This document shows, piece after piece, positions 1-6,522 of a stretch of 6,522 nt of DNA. The stretch's first letter is position 1; the number at the start of each line of letters is the position of its first letter. The position numbers were made by a program, and so were the translations under genes. Location: the IMG/VR virus record IMGVR_UViG_2534681912_000007; one strand, written 5' to 3'. Origin of the DNA: a virus (lineage: Duplodnaviria; Heunggongvirae; Uroviricota; Caudoviricetes). The notes beneath the pieces were generated by a model. That model was given only the letters and a program-made list of their open reading frames with translations, did not search any database and had not been told where the DNA came from.

Positions 1-80
1 TCATATTCGCCCTGACTTTCCAGAACCATACGGACTGCCCGTTGACGGACTTCAGGGGAAAAACGAGTATTTTTAGTCAT
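1..80 (-). CDS. IS3-family transposase OrfA, N-terminal 26 codons (5' partial in window, continues past position 1)
   Basis: The reverse complement of 1..80 translates without a stop to MTKNTRFSPEVRQRAVRMVLESQGEY. A Shine-Dalgarno-like AAGAGG/CAGG lies just upstream of the ATG. This N-terminus is recalled as characteristic of the IS629/IS1203-type OrfA helix-turn-helix protein. Confidence 0.7.
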   Translation of the reverse strand, partial: MTKNTRFSPEVRQRAVRMVLESQGEY

Positions 81-134
81 CCTGTTTACCTCTTTCTCAG
101 GAAGTTTAGTCTCCAGGATTCCCGGGGCGGTTCA
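1..134 (-). mobile_element. Left end of an IS3-family insertion sequence (IS629/IS1203/IS3411-like), partial; continues beyond window start
   Basis: Read on the minus strand from 134, the sequence is TGAACCGCCCCGGGAATCCTGGAGACTAAACTTCCTGAGAAAGAGGTAAACAGG followed by ATG at 80. It has the TG... terminus typical of IS3-family inverted repeats and matches my recollection of the IS629-group left end. The ORF that follows encodes MTKNTRFSPEVRQRAVRMVLESQGEY, recalled as the OrfA N-terminus of this IS group. Exact element identity needs an ISfinder comparison. Confidence 0.7.
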
Positions 135-330
135 GATATTTATTCCATGCCTCCAGCAACGATCTTTCTTCCTCCGTTGCGATTTCCAGATCTACAGCAT
201 CCTGCAGTGGCGCAATATACTCACTGAATTCCTGGATGTAGAACTGTGTGGTGACGGTCTTCCAGCCATTCGGCTCCTGCTGTATCGAAGCATACCAGGC
301 TATTTCAATATCGCTATGCTGCGGCAGCAT
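106..330 (-). pseudogene. Remnant of a second tail fibre assembly gene (tfa-like C-terminal domain), 5'-truncated and 3'-interrupted by the IS insertion
   Basis: The 74-aa ORF contains [29 protein letters not shown], closely matching the C-terminal part of the intact Tfa at 1110..1694 ([29 protein letters not shown]). There is an in-frame stop immediately upstream of the Met at 331..333. The IS terminus begins inside codon 66 at position 134, so the last 8 residues (NRPGNPGD) and the stop at 106..108 are encoded by IS sequence. Confidence 0.7.
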
Positions 331-338
331 TTAACCCC

Positions 339-367
339 TTGTAATTCATCGCCATAATTGATTTAAT
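339..367 (+). promoter_or_regulatory. Putative sigma70 promoter for the methyltransferase gene (-35 TTGTAA 339..344, 17-bp spacer, extended -10 TGaTTTAAT 359..367)
   Basis: Hexamer matches to consensus read directly from the sequence, in the AT-rich region upstream of the + strand ORF. An alternative pair is TTGATT 358..363 with TATAAC 381..386. Prediction only. Confidence 0.25.
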
Positions 368-386
368 TCACAAATAAAACTATAAC

Positions 387-1055
387 ATGGTGAAATCAAT
401 GAAAAAAAACACAGATGATGGGGCTAAAATTTACACACCACTTACCCTAAAGCTTTATGACTGGTGGGTTTTGGGAGTATCAAATCGGCTTGCATGGGGA
501 TGTCCTACAAAGGAACACCTTCTTCCACACTTTCTGGAACATGTAGGTAACAACCATCTGGATATTGGTGTTGGAACTGGGTTTTACCTTACTCACGTAC
601 CTGAGAGTAGTCTGATATCTTTAATGGATTTGAACGAAGCTAGCCTGAACGCGGCATCTACAAGGGCTGGGGAATCAAAAATTAAACATAAAATTAGCCA
701 TGATGTTTTTGAACCTTATCCCGCGGCGTTACATGGTCAATTTGATTCCATTTCCATGTTTTACCTTCTTCACTGCCTGCCTGGAAATATATCTACAAAA
801 AGCTGTGTAATACGCAATGCGGCGCAGGCCTTAACTGACGATGGAACTCTATACGGAGCCACAATTCTTGGCGATGGAGTTGTGCACAATAGCTTCGGTC
901 AAAAACTGATGCGCATTTACAATCAGAAAGGCATCTTTTCAAACACAAAAGATTCCGAAGAAGGCTTAACACATATACTCTCAGAGCATTTCGAGAATGT
1001 TAAAACCAAGGTTCAAGGTACTGTAGTAATGTTTTCCGCTTCAGGGAAAAAATAG
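387..1055 (+). CDS. Class I (Rossmann-fold) SAM-dependent methyltransferase, substrate unknown; moron-like cargo gene
   Basis: 222-aa ORF convergent to tfa. Motif I LDIGVGTG at aa 58-65, acidic post-I residue in LISLMDL (D81), motif II FDSISMFYLLHCLP at aa 119-132 and motif III LTDDGTLYGATIL at aa 149-161 give the canonical MTase order. No DNA-MTase catalytic motifs ((D/N/S)PP(Y/F) or PCQ) are present. The start may instead be ATG 399 (MKKNTDD...), which has GGTGA at 389..393 as a Shine-Dalgarno with 5-nt spacing. The gene is visibly AT-richer than the flanking tail genes. Confidence 0.75.
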   Translation: MVKSMKKNTDDGAKIYTPLTLKLYDWWVLGVSNRLAWGCPTKEHLLPHFLEHVGNNHLDIGVGTGFYLTHVPESSLISLMDLNEASLNAASTRAGESKIKHKISHDVFEPYPAALHGQFDSISMFYLLHCLPGNISTKSCVIRNAAQALTDDGTLYGATILGDGVVHNSFGQKLMRIYNQKGIFSNTKDSEEGLTHILSEHFENVKTKVQGTVVMFSASGKK

Positions 1056-1062
1056 CATCCAA

Positions 1063-1095
1063 CCGCAGCACGTTCTTGCTTAAGACGTGCTGCGG
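1063..1095. terminator. Perfect 11-bp inverted repeat (CCGCAGCACGT / ACGTGCTGCGG) with 11-nt loop between the convergent methyltransferase and tfa genes; possible bidirectional terminator
   Basis: Stem arms 1063..1073 and 1085..1095 are exact reverse complements. It lies 8 nt after the methyltransferase stop (1053..1055) and 15 nt after the tfa stop (1110..1112). On the minus strand the stem is followed by UUGGAUGCUAUUUUUU; on the plus strand there is no U-tract. Confidence 0.4.
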
Positions 1096-1109
1096 CATAA
1101 TCCCAATGA

Positions 1110-1694
1110 TTACTCCCTGACAGGGTTCGTAGGCCACTCAATATCAGGTGCAGTTGATGTATCAACACGGTTCAGCAACACCCGATACTTTTTCCAGGCT
1201 TCCAGCAATGAGGTTTCTTCCTCCGTTGCAATTTCCAGATCTGCAGCATCCTGAAGCGGCGCAATATGCTCACTGGCTACCTGCATCAGGTTGTTTTTTG
1301 TTTCTTCCGCCTCCCGGATCCGGAACAGTTTTTCTGCTTCCGTATCCTTCACCCAGGCTGTGCCGTTCCACTTCTGAAACTCCCCTTCCGGCGATAACCA
1401 GGTAACATTTTCCGGTAACGGACCGAGTTCAGAAATAAATAACTCGTCCCCTGACGCTACGTCATAAACCGTTTTCCCCCGATGGTCTTCAACGAGATGC
1501 CACGATGCCTCATCACTGTTGAAAACAGCCACAAAGCCAGCAGGAATATCTGGTGGTGCAATATCGGTACTGTTTGCTGGCAGACCTGTATGAGGCGGAA
1601 TATATGCGTCACCTTCACCAATAAATTCATTAGTTCCGGCCAGCAGATTATAAATTTTTATGGTCCGTGCTTGTTCACTCATTCTGAATGCCAT
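1110..1694 (-). CDS. tfa: Tail fibre assembly protein Tfa (lambda Tfa homologue, 194 aa)
   Basis: [78 protein letters not shown]... is near-identical over its full length to lambda Tfa as I recall it, with the same 194-aa length. The start ATG (1692..1694) overlaps the stf stop TAA (1694..1696) by 1 nt. Confidence 0.95.
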
Positions 1695-4600
1695 TATGCA
1701 AGCCTCACAATATAGTTAAATGCGATGTTTTTGACGGTGTTTTCCGCGTTACCCGCAGCGTTAACGGTGATGGTGTGTCCATGTGAACCAATCGCAACGG
1801 AGTGCGTATGCGCACCAATACCTACAGTATGTGCATGTGCGCCAGAACTTGCTGCAGTACCAGACAGCGAGTGGGTATGAGCACCTGCTGACTGTGTCTG
1901 AATACGTTGATAATACGATCTATAGGAAGAAGTCTCCGGGCTTACTTGATACTGTGAATTCTGGACATAAGTGAACCCACCGCCATCATAAAATGCTAAC
2001 GCAGAACCGCCGCCTCCTGGCCAACGAATACCATTACCATGAGTATGAACACCGGCAGACCCCGTAGAGCCACTCAGACTGTGCGTATGCGCCCCGGTGT
2101 TATTCGTGGATTTAGTGCCGTAATCAAACGACGATGTGGTTTTCGTCCCCAAATCCGTACTGGATGCGCTGGCGCTGTGGGTGTGCGATTTTATGCCGTC
2201 CTGTTCCTGAGACAATACGGCCCGGCCACTGGCGGGTTTGCCCTTGATTGTCCAGCCGCGCATATCTGGAATAACACCTGAAGGATAGGCAATAGCCAGT
2301 TTCGGATATGCTGCCTTATCAAACGTCTGCCCCTGCATGATTGCATAACCTGCAGGTGGTGTATCTGATGGCCACGGCAGCGGAACACCTGGCGGAAACG
2401 CTTCAATATTTGCCGAGCCGTCAAATTTTACGCCGTTAATTGTCCTTGCAGTTTGCAATTTGGTTGCTGTGCTTGCATTACCCGATAAAGATCCAGTGAT
2501 ACCACCACTCGCGTTTAATTTAGTTGCAATTGTAACATTGCCAGTATGGTTACTAATTATAAACGGCCTTAAGCTATTGTGCGTACCAAGACTGTTACCC
2601 GAATCTGTCAACATAAAATATGTGTTTGATCCATCATTTCGGATAAAGAATCCATAGTTGCCATAGGCAATACGCAGACCATTTGCTGACCTTGAAATAA
2701 CCTCACCAGCAGCAGTTAAACCACCTGAAAGAGTCCCTCCAGTTAATGCCAATGCCCCAATATTTGAAGGGGTCAATGTGATATTTGCACTACCATCAAA
2801 TGACACACCGTTAATCGTTCTGGCTGCCTGAAGTTTCGTGGCGGTCGCAGCATTACCTGTAGTGTTTTGATTACCGGTAGCGTTGACTCCAGGCAAGTTG
2901 ATATCTGCCGATCCATCAAATGCCACGCCCCCAATCTTACGTGCTGTCTTGATCTTGGTCGCAGTATCTGCGTTTCCGGTCAAATTACCAGTAACACTAC
3001 CACCAACTTTTAGTCCATTACCGATGGACACCAACCCTGATCTTAAGTTTATAGAGAATGGTCTTAATGAACCGATGTCTCCATTTTCCCCCTCCCCTTC
3101 ATTAGTCGGAATAAGATGAAGATGATCTTCGGAACGCCTAAAAATAAGGCCAAAGGCTTGGTTGAATATTCGAAGAGCATTTATCGTGCTGATTTTTAAC
3201 TGCCCTCCCATTGTGTCGCCAGTTTTTTGAACTGAACTATCTTTAACAGTTTTAACTGCCTTTGGCGTTGCCGCCAGCTTTTCACTGGTGCTGTTTGTTG
3301 CACTGCTGAGCTGTACTATCCCCTTTTTCGTCGTGCTCGCATCCTCCAGCGCCACGGCGGATGCAATATCCTCTGCCCGTTTTGCTGCTGTCTCGGCGCG
3401 CGTTGCCGCGGATTCAGCAGCAACTTTGCTCTGAGATGCAGCCGTCGCACTGCCTGCCGCCTCTGATGCTTTCGTTGTTGCTGTCGTGGCACTACCTTTC
3501 GCTGCTGACGCTTGTCTGGTCGCCTCATCTTTTGAAGCAGACGCAGATGATGCCGATGACGCCGCTGAACTGGCTGACGATGCGGCTGCCGCCTTAGAGG
3601 AAGCAGCATTGTCTGCTGAAGTCTTTGCATTTGTTTCAGAGGTTTTTGCTGCAGAAGCAGACCTCGCTGCTGCAGTGGCTTGCTCAGTGGCTTTGCCAGC
3701 CTTCGTTGTGGCTGTTGAAGCGGATGATGCGGCGCTTTCTGCCGATTTTCCGGCGGCGGTGGCACTGGCTGAGGCCTGCCCGGCACTTGTTGACGCGGCA
3801 CTGGCAGATAATGCAGCCGCTGTTTTTGAACCTGCCGCAGCTGAGGCGCTCTGTCCCGCTGCTGTTTCAGAAGACTTAGCGTTCGTCTCGGACGTTTTTG
3901 CCGCCTTCGCGGAATTTCCTGCCGCCGTTGCCGAGGAAGCTGCACTACTGGCACTTGATGATGCATTCGTTTCTGAAGATTTCGCTGCCTCTTTTGAGGC
4001 CGCCGCACCCCGTGCCGAGGTGGCAGCTTCTGACGCCTTCGTGGTCGCTGTGGATGCAGAAGTGGCTGCCGATTTTTGTGATGCTGCGGCATTCGTTTCT
4101 GACGTTTTCGCGGCACTGGCGCTGGTAGCTGCCGCGCTTTTTGATGACTCTGCAGCAGCAGCACTTTTTGCTGCTTCACGGGCCTTTGTCGATGCCGTTC
4201 CTGCGCTGGAAGACGCTGACTGAGCCGACGACGCGGCCTGTCCGGCTGACGTGCTGGCGGCACGTGCTGAGGCTGCAGCATCGGTTGCATGAGTTGCCGC
4301 CTCGCTGGCTGATGCACTGGCATCGCTGGCTGATTTTTTCGCGGCTGCCGTATTCTGTGCAACCGCGGAGGCGTTACGTGACACCTCTTCCACCATCTGC
4401 TCAAAGCGGCGCAGTGCCTCCGGTCGGACATCATCCTCCGTCATGGCACCGAGAAAATCATTCAGCGTACCTGGTCTGGAACCTTCATAGACGGTAATGG
4501 TCCCGGCATGTGAAGGCGGAAAACCTTCAACCAGCAGGGTGACGCTGTACTGGCCATGCTCAACATCCATGCTGTAACGTCCGGCTTCATCCGGATTTTC

Positions 4601-4720
4601 AGAGGCCACCGTGTTCACCACCACCGTGCTGCTGGTTCGTCTGGCCTTCAGCACAATGGTGCAGTTCTGTACTGGTTTTCCTGTGCCATCTTTAAGCACG
4701 CCAGAAATTTTTACTGTCAT
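1694..4720 (-). CDS. stf: Side tail fibre protein Stf (lambda Stf/StfR family), 1008 aa, mosaic
   Basis: N-terminus [22 protein letters not shown]... and C-terminus ...[31 protein letters not shown] match lambda Stf as recalled. It has a long Ala/Ser/Thr-rich segment with KTSETNA-type repeats, three GNAxTATK(L/I)xxAR(K/T)I(G/N)GVxFDGSA(D/N)I units and C-terminal HxH repeats. A GGTGG Shine-Dalgarno lies 6 nt upstream of the ATG at 4720. Confidence 0.95.
1766..2188 (-). other. C-terminal His-x-His repeat region of Stf (SHTHS, GAHTHS, GVHTHG, GAHTHS, GAHAHT, GAHTHS, SHGHT); putative metal-coordinating distal tip
   Basis: Seven HxH motifs in aa ~845-985, read directly from the translation. The same motif type coordinates metal ions in the T4 gp37 long tail fibre tip (established knowledge). 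Confidence 0.6.
2408..3181 (-). repeat. Internal tandem duplication of a ~95-aa shaft module within Stf (unit A aa 514-608 = nt 2897..3181; unit B aa 677-771 = nt 2408..2692), with an extra fibre-repeat unit between them
   Basis: [29 protein letters not shown]...[16 protein letters not shown]...[31 protein letters not shown] aligns without gaps to [29 protein letters not shown]...[16 protein letters not shown]...[31 protein letters not shown]. Shared positions include LRI, SLRPF, GNAxTATK, TAR and FDGSA. A third [26 protein letters not shown] unit lies at aa 621-647. Confidence 0.6.
3326..4378 (-). repeat. Coding low-complexity Ala/Ser/Thr-rich repeat region of Stf (aa ~115-465) with diverged tandem repeats at DNA level
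   Basis: The protein is dominated by A, S, T, K, E with recurring [14 protein letters not shown] and [10 protein letters not shown] motifs. Recurring nucleotide motifs such as gcattcgtttctga(a/c)g(a/t)tttcgc appear at ~3961 and ~4089, with variants at ~3618 and ~3877. The GC-rich repetitive composition creates long spurious ORFs in other frames. Confidence 0.8.
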
Positions 4721-4871: not shown

Positions 4872-5471
4872 TCAGAAACGGTATCCGATACCAACAATAA
4901 ATGCATCCGTTCGCCAGTCGCCACTACCGGAACCTTCATAAGCAAGGTCAATGGTTACGGATTCGGTCGGGTTAAACTGCACGCCAGCCCCCCACGCCAG
5001 AGACGTGTTGCTGTGGCGACCGTCATCACTTCCGGTCAGCACATCGTGCGTTTTCCCCTTGTTGTCAGTTACGCGGAGATAATCCCCGGAGAAAGTCGAC
5101 ACACGGCTGTAAGCCACACCCACCATCGCATAAGCACTGAACCATTCATTCACGCGTACAGACGGCCCCGCCATCACGCTGAACCAGCGGTTACGCACGG
5201 AATCTTCATGCCAGCGGGTATCGCTGTAATGCGTTTTTTGCTCATCCTCAGCATTGGCATAACTGAAGGACGTAACCAGCCCCAGCGCGTCCGTAAACTC
5301 ATAACGGTATTTCACGTTAATCCCCTTCAGATCATCACTGCCGGGAACATCAGTACGGGCATGAAGATACCCCGCGCTCAGTGTGGACTGATGCTCAGAC
5401 GCCCACGCAGGCGCACCAGAGACAAACAGACAGACGACTGCGGACAAAATAACAGCACAAAATTTACGCAT
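4872..5471 (-). CDS. lom: Lom outer membrane protein (Ail/Lom family), 199 aa, with Sec signal peptide
   Basis: MRKFCAVILSAVVCLFVSGAPAWA|SEHQSTLSAGYLHA...WHEDSVRNRWFSVMAGPSVRVNEWFSAYAM...GIGYRF closely matches lambda Lom as recalled. It has an N-terminal hydrophobic signal with an AWA cleavage motif and a C-terminal aromatic residue typical of beta-barrel outer membrane proteins. A GAGAGGT Shine-Dalgarno precedes the ATG at 5471. Confidence 0.95.
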   Translation of the reverse strand: MRKFCAVILSAVVCLFVSGAPAWASEHQSTLSAGYLHARTDVPGSDDLKGINVKYRYEFTDALGLVTSFSYANAEDEQKTHYSDTRWHEDSVRNRWFSVMAGPSVRVNEWFSAYAMVGVAYSRVSTFSGDYLRVTDNKGKTHDVLTGSDDGRHSNTSLAWGAGVQFNPTESVTIDLAYEGSGSGDWRTDAFIVGIGYRF

Positions 5472-5538: not shown

Positions 5539-6522
5539 TCAGCTGATACTGATGCCTGCGGTGGCTTTCTTCATCACCACAACCAGCAAATCGCTGATAC
5601 TTGCTGTGGGATACCAGCCATTTACCCACCATGCTGATACAGAAAACTCCAGCGTCATGTCGCCGCGACCAGCAGGCATATCAATAACACCACTGTAAAT
5701 CAGCGTATTATCCAGCGCGGTACGGTTATAAATTTCAGCACCGTTTTTCCGTACTATCAGGCGGCATGACGAATAAATATCGTTATTCTCCCGCTCATGT
5801 TTAGCGCCGCTGAATGCCACCGCCGGAATAACAATTTGCCTGTCAAAAGGCTGATCGTCATAAATCCTGACGGTAATGGTCCCTGATGGCCACCGCTCCG
5901 GTGCCCGGGAGTCCCGCGGAAAAGCCTTACCCACTGTTTTGACTATATCGCCTTCAATCTGGTTGGCTGACAGTTTCCCCTTAATCTGACAGTTCTCATT
6001 AATTGTGACATTGTTGAGCGTCCCGGCGTTCGCATTCACACTGCCACTGATATCTGCATTTTTAGCGGTCAGTTTTCCGTCCGGTGTCAGGGAAAATGCC
6101 GGAGGATTACCGCCGCTGGTAATGGTGGGAGCCGTCAGGCGTTTCAGGAACACGTCGTTCATGAATATCTGATCGCCCTGACCAACAAACATCGGCTTTG
6201 TGTTGCCATTCGCAGGATTAATCATCGCAATCCTGTCTGCCGCCAGCAGCACCTGACTCTGCATTCCTGCTGGCGTATTCTCAATACCGGCACCGATACC
6301 CGCAATATAAAGGCGTCCGTCCTGCATCTGCTGCAGCTTCACAGCCCACATGCTGTTCAGATTATTATTTGTATCAACCTGAACCTTCTGTATCTGCTGG
6401 ATTGCCGCACTCTGATTTTCCAGTTTTTTATTGACGGTCTGCGTGATTTCATTGCTGACATCCGTAATGGACGTCCTGATTTCAGCCAGGTCAGGCGCAA
6501 GCTGACCGTTATCAATCTGCGT
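5539..6522 (-). CDS. J: Tail tip host-specificity protein J (central tail fibre), C-terminal ~327 codons; 5' part lies beyond the window end
   Basis: The frame stays open from the window edge at 6522 ([161 protein letters not shown]...) to the stop at 5539. This matches the C-terminal region of lambda J as recalled, in the canonical J-lom-stf-tfa order. The Met at 6351 in the ORF track is internal, not the true start. Confidence 0.95.

Follow-up and report, generated by a model that had tools for sequence, protein, structure and literature searches.

A chimeric tfa remnant and a convergent methyltransferase gene behind the side tail-fibre genes of a lambdoid prophage: counterpart of tfaD-ybcY-tfaX in Escherichia coli K-12

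Why does a second, shorter tfa-like sequence lie behind the intact tail-fibre assembly gene (tfa) of a lambdoid prophage, with a methyltransferase gene between the two? The question is raised by a stretch of 6,522 nucleotides from the IMG/VR virus record IMGVR_UViG_2534681912_000007 (Caudoviricetes), which was analysed over its whole length and is referred to here as the window. We hold with high confidence that the open reading frame (ORF) at 106–330 is a non-functional recombination scar and corresponds to the pseudogene locus tfaD-ybcY-tfaX of Escherichia coli K-12. The features of the window are as follows:

1–134, minus strand: left end of an IS3-family element, with the start of orfA at base 80 and running off the window
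106–330, minus strand: chimeric ORF of 74 aa (from the ORF list), very probably a tfaX-type pseudogene, cut by the IS
135–226, minus strand: tfa-derived remnant, ORF codons 36–65 plus one base (DNA alignment, Pfam)
227–330, minus strand: start of a gene of a 79-aa family (35 codons; phrog_3893 match), fused in frame to the tfa remnant
331–398, no strand: divergent spacer separating the chimeric ORF from the methyltransferase gene, with an RBS (AAGGGG) and a promoter-like TTGATT-17-TATAAC at 358–386
387–1055, plus strand: class I SAM-methyltransferase ORF of 222 aa (Pfam Methyltransf_12/23/25/11)
1063–1095, no strand: GC-rich hairpin where tfa and the methyltransferase gene converge (fold energy)
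1110–1694, minus strand: intact tfa, 194 aa (full-length Caudo_TAP match, E=1.9e-44)
1184–1286, minus strand: repeat copy within the intact tfa (true homology 1184–1275; DNA alignment)
1694–4720, minus strand: stf, side tail-fibre gene upstream of tfa, 1008 aa (Pfam phage_tail_N, Gp34_trimer, Collar, Phage_fiber)
4872–5471, minus strand: lom
5539–6522, minus strand: C-terminal part of J

All major ORFs of the window are thereby assigned (J, lom, stf, tfa, methyltransferase, fragment and IS). The phage structural genes all lie on the minus strand, and the methyltransferase gene, on the plus strand, converges on tfa. The product of the intact tfa covers positions 1–130 of the Caudo_TAP profile (PF02413) in Pfam, and its residues 127–191 align with the C-terminal part of the Mu protein Tfa U (PDB 5YVQ_B). 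Lambda records match the window over 1061–1750, tfa included, with 94% DNA identity.

The earlier note had placed a second piece of tfa about 800 bp downstream of the first, on the same strand and with the methyltransferase gene in between, and such a piece is indeed found at 780 bp. Its likeness to tfa is smaller than the block of near-identity of about 45 aa that had been proposed: in BLASTP the ORF at 106–330 shares 31 of 45 residues with the intact Tfa (69%, E=6e-16) across a gap of three residues, and the truly homologous part comprises ORF residues 36–65, with 26 of 30 aa identical. Against Caudo_TAP the ORF scores 42.2 bits (E=1.1e-10), above the gathering cut-off of 22.1 bits, over profile positions 75–111 of 131 only. 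Aligning the nucleotides of the two tfa regions yields a significant direct repeat of 103 nt (135–237 vs 1184–1286, 84% identity), of which 135–226 vs 1184–1275 is genuine tfa homology (80 of 92 nt identical). A spurious ORF whose similarity is owed to chance or low complexity has next to no probability: such an explanation could appeal to the shortness of the ORF and its overlap with an antisense ORF, but the pairwise and Pfam E-values and the DNA identity of 84–87% over 92–103 nt speak decisively against it.

The description of the ORF as a truncated copy of tfa therefore needs to be divided. A remnant of the 3' end of tfa in direct orientation is present; the ORF as a whole, however, is a chimera of three parts, namely the 5' end of a gene from a 79-aa family, a piece of the Tfa C-domain, and a tail contributed by an IS3-family element. 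Residues 1–35 are not derived from tfa and match phrog_3893 (E=3.9e-7 on residues 3–37), so that the two-domain architecture of Tfa is absent from the ORF. The switch into tfa sequence lies at CAGTGAG, at window position 226, as seen when the window is aligned with the intact tfa, with phage Ayreon and with a Klebsiella phage. At the other end, the last nine codons and the stop codon are encoded by the terminal inverted repeat of the IS, since homology to the window starts at base 135 in every relative. Moreover, the ORF does not directly follow a fibre gene, being cut off from tfa and stf by the terminator hairpin and the convergent methyltransferase gene.

The source of codons 1–35 could be traced with tblastn, in which the N-terminus of the ORF found a decayed copy in phage Ayreon (75% identity) and a 79-aa ORF of Klebsiella phages (51%); the 79-aa ORF is seen in locus L009. 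The family to which it belongs comprises 125 protein clusters of nearly constant length, mostly 79 aa, from Klebsiella, Raoultella, Enterobacter, Citrobacter, Salmonella, Pantoea and Erwinia, and its members are mostly mislabelled as 'DNA polymerase V' in NCBI records. In the Klebsiella phage Kp4882-3 the gene is preceded by a perfect LexA-type box and followed by an ORF in which a UmuD-like motif, GFPSPAADY, was recognised by eye; a Pfam search with the latter ORF matched no family. Protein searches with the 40-aa N-terminus returned mostly truncated entries of the TfaX type and a few partial Citrobacter 'DNA polymerase V' entries with 84–86% identity. In one genome PGAP labels the stretch 232–312, on the plus strand, as 'DinI family protein (partial)', which neither Pfam nor NCBIfam reproduced. 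In phage Ayreon the 79-aa gene continues beyond the junction at which the window turns to tfa, and the ORF is thus an in-frame fusion of the 5' end of the 79-aa gene with the 3' end of tfa. Ayreon is the only case in which the gene runs past the junction, and the methyltransferase gene there is mostly deleted. A pre-fusion state, with the methyltransferase gene beside a full-length 79-aa gene, was not found among the relatives searched. Kp4882-3 has the 79-aa gene without a methyltransferase gene, and the Enterobacter homologues of the methyltransferase (61–64% identity) are chromosomal, have no 79-aa gene as neighbour and lie beside an ORF of 677 aa, presumably dcp. Uropathogenic E. coli (UPEC) 536, in which the methyltransferase gene occurs without the fragment, was considered as a pre-fusion state and rejected, as it represents a further deletion of the DLP12 remnant.

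The third part of the chimera comes from an insertion sequence. An IS3-family element has inserted into the tfa remnant between bases 134 and 135, and its terminal inverted repeat ends at base 134. Its orfA, read from base 80 to base 1 and out of the window (MTKNTRFSPEVRQRAVRMVLESQGEY), has a product beginning with MTKNTRFSPEVRQRAV, and the terminal sequence TGAACCGCCCCGGG is one that we take to match IS629/IS1203. Window 1–134 has a 98% identical counterpart in locus L002, where an annotated IS3-family transposase element has its edge. None of the complete E. coli genomes and IMG/VR loci examined has the IS at base 134/135, and the IS copies of L002, L035 and L080 lie elsewhere. The insertion has cost the fragment the last 24 tfa codons, the stop codon and the hairpin, and has given it a new tail of nine codons.

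What the fragment looked like without the IS can be read from the relatives. In IS-free copies it continues to the natural end of tfa (...DIEWPANPVRE, the 89-aa form), a stop codon and a second terminator hairpin, and the repeat, between window 1061–1286 and the fragment, then measures 226 nt at 88–89% identity, with perfect runs of 39 and 35 nt. Since lambda homology also ends at 1061, tfa together with its hairpin is a conserved module end. Deletion of the methyltransferase cassette through the direct repeats, as suggested in the earlier note, is plausible in general, and mosaic loci lacking the cassette do exist (see below). In the window itself, however, the leftover repeat is 103 nt long at 84% identity with a longest perfect run of 16 nt, the 39- and 35-nt runs having gone; because the IS has removed the best homology, such a deletion is less likely here than in the IS-free relatives.

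The cassette between the repeats extends from 227 to 1060 and contains the start of the 79-aa gene, a 56-nt divergent spacer and the methyltransferase gene, whose stop codon is 5 nt from the cassette boundary. The methyltransferase matches phrog_2132 (E=4e-157) from residue 5 onwards, and translation most likely begins at the ATG at 399, giving 218 aa. It is the intact counterpart of the K-12 pseudogene ybcY, which sits in the same position, and constitutes a moron between the two tfa sequences: in 20 genomes tfa and its terminator are directly joined to the downstream DUF4376 fragment, lambda homology to the window stops at 1061, and the base composition differs from that of the surrounding phage genes (GC 0.37–0.45 across 301–1100 vs 0.47–0.55 in the flanks). 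The only hairpin near the gene is the one shared with tfa at 1063–1095, with fold energies of -28.5 and -23.6 kcal/mol on the two strands (z = -5.4 and -5.5). A promoter consensus scan of the spacer gave weak matches only, no more than in shuffled sequences. PADLOC matched neither the methyltransferase nor the ORF credibly to a defence system, and a search of NCBIfam yielded sub-threshold methyltransferase matches only.

In the view of the earlier note, a new distal stf and tfa module together with the methyltransferase moron was recombined in, leaving the original 3' end of a tfa gene behind; read literally, this would be a recent event in this prophage and the fragment a relic of its own previous tfa. 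Several observations agree with this: the fragment represents the 3' end of a tfa in direct orientation, DNA that accompanies the methyltransferase gene is joined to its upstream edge by an illegitimate junction, and siblings without the cassette exist at the same site. Such a 5' edge is what would remain after a crossover of an incoming arm of tfa plus moron with the middle of a resident tfa, which supports an exchange of tfa and moron sequences as the source of the remnant. That the remnant is this prophage's original tfa end is not supported, however, because the same junction is present in K-12 DLP12 and in most complete E. coli genomes. Of 5426 complete E. coli genomes, 3798 (~70%) have the composite (135–1060, counted as present at ≥80% coverage), some with several copies, and the larger stretch 1–1750, with this particular tfa, is found in 1493 genomes. 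Prophages carry it at argU/ompT (DLP12) and at a prophage end inside ompW, the latter with the stf and tfa of the window (100% over 135–3200), O157:H7 has it in a different local arrangement, and it is found in the plaque-forming or induced/free phages PhiR26_1, PhiR29/30, 2G7b, ev243, Turner and Kati. The N-terminal residues (at least 44) and the junction do not differ between the 87 copies examined, and in K-12 DLP12, ompW prophages, O157:H7 and free phages with other tfa and stf genes the junction is identical and the fragment 97–100% identical. The presence of the composite in 70% of genomes, with several tfa/stf modules and at several sites, marks it as an old inherited scar rather than a recent event specific to this prophage, and suggests that it entered this lineage ready-made. 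A recent origin is accordingly very improbable in our estimation, the more so as fragment-type sequence does not extend over the entire conserved block in any of the nine cassette-less siblings examined.

These cassette-less siblings also indicate how the composite has moved. A chimeric probe of 600 nt, in which the downstream DUF4376 fragment and the fragment's 3' end were fused in register with tfa, gave single-piece matches in 20 complete genomes. In these, tfa runs directly into this DUF4376 fragment at the same prophage end, and the cassette is absent, an arrangement for which the earlier note had suggested looking in relatives. A 900-nt version of the probe gave 381 genomes with that downstream context in total, about 361 with the cassette and 20 without. 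Nine cassette-less loci were fetched, eight of them at the ompW site and one (L111) next to uspF/ompN, and all are mosaics of 'tfa-type' and 'fragment-type' SNPs within the repeat zone, with switch points that differ between them (1089–1125 in EFF60, 1130–1170 in rl0044, patchy in others). No pure parent, that is a tfa with fragment-type sequence throughout, was found among the nine, and the tfa of phage ev099 is only partly fragment-like. The Tfa protein of the cassette-less EFF60 is identical to that of the cassette-bearing strain 118UI (WP_000885577.1). The mosaics fit recombination between the repeats, either as loss of the cassette or as gain from a composite-bearing donor; they could partly reflect general shuffling of alleles among tfa genes instead of repeat-repeat crossovers.

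Further evidence points to the conserved 3' block of tfa as the place of recombination. In a survey of 80 IMG/VR loci and the fetched genomes, the collinear homology that begins at base 135 breaks off in more than 25 loci either at 1095/1101 or at one of the positions 1207, 1230 and 1255, of which the latter three fall inside the conserved tfa block, and other breakpoints, in tfa and stf, were recorded at 1342, 1548, ~1606–1643, ~1837–1899, 2377/2396 and beyond 3200. Breakpoints within the conserved block mean that one cassette with its fragment is joined to different Tfa N-domains and fibres. This pattern fits the described domain organisation of Tfa, in which the fibre-binding domain at the N-terminus varies and the helical domain at the C-terminus is conserved (North et al., 2019, as summarised in PMC9608196), and also an experiment in which lambda recombined with prophage stf/tfa DNA of 88% identity by Red-beta at a frequency of ~2e-6 (PMC3945230).

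Could the ORF, 89 aa long when uncut, nevertheless be a functional small gene, for instance a free oligomerisation domain of the Tfa C-terminus that acts as an accessory or decoy chaperone? It retains a conserved start codon with the RBS AAGGGG 4 nt upstream, has a PHROG family of its own (phrog_2341) and is present in viable phages, all of which count against its being a scar. In K-12, an RpoD holoenzyme SELEX peak (in vitro) and an H-NS site have been reported in the spacer between ybcY and tfaX (PMC3946193), but when our sequence is compared with that report the promoter hexamers proposed for tfaX would overlap the tfaX ATG. The polymorphism of the ORF amounts to 10 synonymous and 14 non-synonymous differences, one of these a stop; the resulting pN/pS of 0.35, from 24 variable sites, is no higher than and not distinguishable from that of the neighbouring methyltransferase gene, which weakens the case for neutral decay. 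This crude count is distorted by end artefacts of the gapless scan and by the low divergence of the copies. As most copies are at least 97% alike in DNA, their conservation is little informative in any case.

Against a function stands, above all, the state of the C-terminal end, which is not conserved. The fragment has at least eight different 3' forms in IS-free relatives (89, 88, 101, 106, 110, 82, 66 and 61 aa), besides the 74 aa of the window. The K-12 form is ended by a stop codon, the 2G7b and 106-aa forms result from frameshifts, and the 101-aa DLP12 type from a deletion at DTS; ISEc8 has inserted next to the fragment in O157:H7, the IS3-family element has cut it in the window, and UPEC 536 has lost it altogether. 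The fibre-binding N domain is lacking, and PGAP annotates the fragment as a pseudogene missing its N-terminus. Having been truncated independently many times, the ORF is most likely non-functional, and we regard a functional small gene as an unlikely alternative with only a small share of the probability. The fragment probably does nothing, its only likely 'activity' being that of a stretch of homology.

How the scar may have formed can be outlined from the junction. Originally, the 79-aa gene would have been located divergently upstream of the methyltransferase moron, which itself would have stood just downstream of tfa and its terminator. A single ancient illegitimate crossover from codon 35 of the 79-aa gene to about codon 140 of tfa would then have produced the order tfa, terminator, methyltransferase gene, fusion of the 5' end of the 79-aa gene with the 3' end of tfa, and terminator. 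By this event the methyltransferase gene would have become flanked by a direct repeat of ~226 nt, because the piece retained is the C-domain common to all Tfa, followed by the same hairpin. Distribution and mosaics suggest that the composite has since been inherited and moved among lambdoid phages and prophages by homologous recombination, with the conserved tfa 3' end and the terminator as exchange sites; in this manner it would have come to stand beside tfa/stf modules of different specificity, and would have entered or left one and the same prophage end. The insertion of the IS3-family element into the remnant at 134/135, by contrast, is directly seen in the window.

The locus is already known, as it is a widespread counterpart of the annotated tfaX/ybcY/tfaD remnant of K-12, and it illustrates the well-known mosaic evolution of lambdoid tail-fibre regions while offering little new biology. 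What can be added is descriptive: TfaX-type ORFs consist of the start of a 79-aa gene associated with an SOS operon, fused to the conserved Tfa C-domain; a repeat of the tfa 3' end and terminator brackets the methyltransferase cassette; and the presence or absence of this cassette is polymorphic at the same prophage end. For annotation, the ORF is best labelled a pseudogene fragment, not a tail-fibre assembly protein. A more far-reaching idea, which we consider a long shot, is that the retained C-domain block and terminator serve as a portable homology arm for the moron, and/or that the 89-aa ORF is expressed as an interfering domain. If the former were true, the methyltransferase moron could hop into any lambdoid phage with a Tfa-type chaperone gene; if the latter, the tail-fibre assembly of co-resident or superinfecting phages would be disturbed.

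Among known systems, the invertible segments of Mu (G), P1 (C) and e14 (P) resemble the locus in having two tfa-related sequences downstream of one stf, and some relatives, such as phage Turner, even possess a DNA invertase gene between tfa and the cassette. In the window, however, the two copies are in direct orientation on the minus strand, there is no invertase ORF, inverted crossover sites are missing from the flanks (inverted matches measure only 14–23 nt and are imperfect), and what lies across the upstream junction is a small unrelated gene instead of an alternate stf'. The earlier note had already argued that the fragment is not the alternate arm of a Mu G-type segment, and we likewise attach virtually no probability to its being an alternate tfa' of this kind.

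Compared with the assembly proteins themselves, that is lambda Tfa, Mu U and P2 G (PF02413), the recombination scar corresponds in residues 36–65 to the conserved C-terminal domain. It differs from them by the lack of the N-terminal fibre-binding domain, by its foreign N-terminus and IS-derived C-terminus, and by its position, which is not beside a fibre gene. The methyltransferase gene agrees with lambdoid morons in the sense of Hendrix and Juhala, being an accessory gene of low GC content between segments that are contiguous in relatives. Unlike these, it stands between two copies of the tfa 3' end and terminator, and shares the hairpin of tfa rather than having a terminator of its own. The clustering of breakpoints in the conserved tfa 3' block is in turn the same as in the exchange of lambdoid tail-fibre modules via conserved linkers.

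The closest parallel is tfaD-ybcY-tfaX in the DLP12 prophage of K-12. In the annotated MG1655 region the order and orientation are those of the window, with tfa, a convergent methyltransferase gene and a co-oriented tfa fragment, and the DNA of DLP12 (locus L007) is 98% identical over window 135–1548. TfaX, with its 61 aa, is identical to ORF residues 1–61 and includes the same 5' junction. The two loci differ in their state of decay: ybcY is a pseudogene, whereas the methyltransferase gene of the window is intact, and tfaD lacks its stf, whereas tfa and stf are both intact in the window. TfaX ends at a stop codon after 61 aa, the fragment of the window being cut by the IS3-family element instead, and the tfa part of the K-12 fragment is shortened at its 3' side, its homology to the intact tfa ending at window position 1130.

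The N-terminus of the 74-aa tfaX-type ORF (window 106-330, minus strand) comes from a 79-aa family gene, which in Klebsiella phage Kp4882-3 (L009) is preceded by a LexA-type box:
L009 3469-3484: LexA-type box
L009 3504-4071: 79-aa family gene region
The box upstream of the gene is perfect (TACTGTATATAAAAACAGTA), and the ORF that follows the gene contains the UmuD-like motif GFPSPAADY, which was spotted by eye; no Pfam family was found for this motif-bearing ORF. Together, the box before the 79-aa gene and the UmuD-like motif after it suggest that the gene belongs to an SOS-regulated operon in Kp4882-3. The label 'DNA polymerase V', under which the small 79-aa protein appears at NCBI, looks like a misnomer. 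On the opposite strand, PGAP annotation of strain B-1109 (L114) contains a further call:
Window 232-312 (L114 3098-3178), plus strand: partial 'DinI family protein'
This call runs antisense to the N-terminal part of the 74-aa ORF, and a DinI protein at this position had no support from Pfam or NCBIfam.

The tfa remnant within the ORF was the insertion target of an IS3-family element, presumably IS629/IS1203-like:
Window 1-134: left end of the IS3-family element, with the start of orfA at base 80
An IS at exactly the same position was found neither in the complete E. coli genomes of the collection nor in the fetched IMG/VR loci. Downstream of the IS-free tfa fragment at another prophage end (L001), two further degraded genes follow:
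L001 5561-5830: DUF4376 domain protein pseudogene fragment with an internal stop
L001 5213-5338: truncated ompW
From this layout it follows that the prophage is inserted in ompW and that its end carries a series of chaperone-gene remnants.

Relatives carry additional genes around the methyltransferase cassette. E. coli O157:H7 FRIK804 (L115), whose tfa fragment is abutted by an ISEc8 element, has approximately 2.8 kb of stress-type genes (3968-6770) between the methyltransferase-side terminator and the tfa 3' end. This block encodes a manganese catalase and a general stress protein, plus two proteins resembling ferritin. The locus resembles an accretion hot spot for accessory genes. In phage Turner (L005 3962-5609), a gene for a DNA invertase, together with roughly 1 kb of short ORFs that carry no annotation, separates tfa from the cassette, which is thus able to sit beyond an inversion system.

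The methyltransferase probably starts with the ATG at 399 (218 aa) rather than at 387. The PHROG profile alignment to this ORF begins at residue 5, and the Enterobacter homologues are 218 aa long with the N-terminus MKKQTD. Base 387 is abutted by a site reported for ybcY of K-12:
Window 358-386: promoter-like TTGATT-17-TATAAC
The nearest homologues outside Escherichia are chromosomal and share 61–64% identity (Enterobacter, L098-L101; match at 3001-3654). The surroundings of the L098 copy are not those of a phage tail fibre, and it adjoins a 677-aa ORF that we take to be dcp (dipeptidyl carboxypeptidase).

Additional ORFs are predicted at the 3' end of the methyltransferase gene and in the middle of stf:
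Window 1000-1137, minus strand: 45-aa ORF, RefSeq hypothetical protein WP_001309429.1
Window 3300-4400: long extra ORFs of 372 aa (minus strand) and 245 aa (plus strand)
The first overlaps the hairpin, the tfa stop, and the methyltransferase 3' end, and is probably spurious. The stf middle is repetitive and Ala/Ser/Thr-rich, yielding long antisense or out-of-frame ORFs, and the 372-aa and 245-aa ORFs are almost certainly artefacts of biased composition.

Phage Ayreon (L008 3200-3600) retains only the last approximately 48 codons of tfa, located after a tail-fibre gene whose product reads as if it ended in a putative self-chaperoning C-terminal domain. Its tfa homology begins at window position 1255, within the conserved 3' block, and the remnant is followed by the hairpin, then by just the final 36 nt of the methyltransferase gene, and then by the 79-aa family gene, which contains an in-frame stop. 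The Ayreon locus is a sibling of the window locus in a further state of decay.
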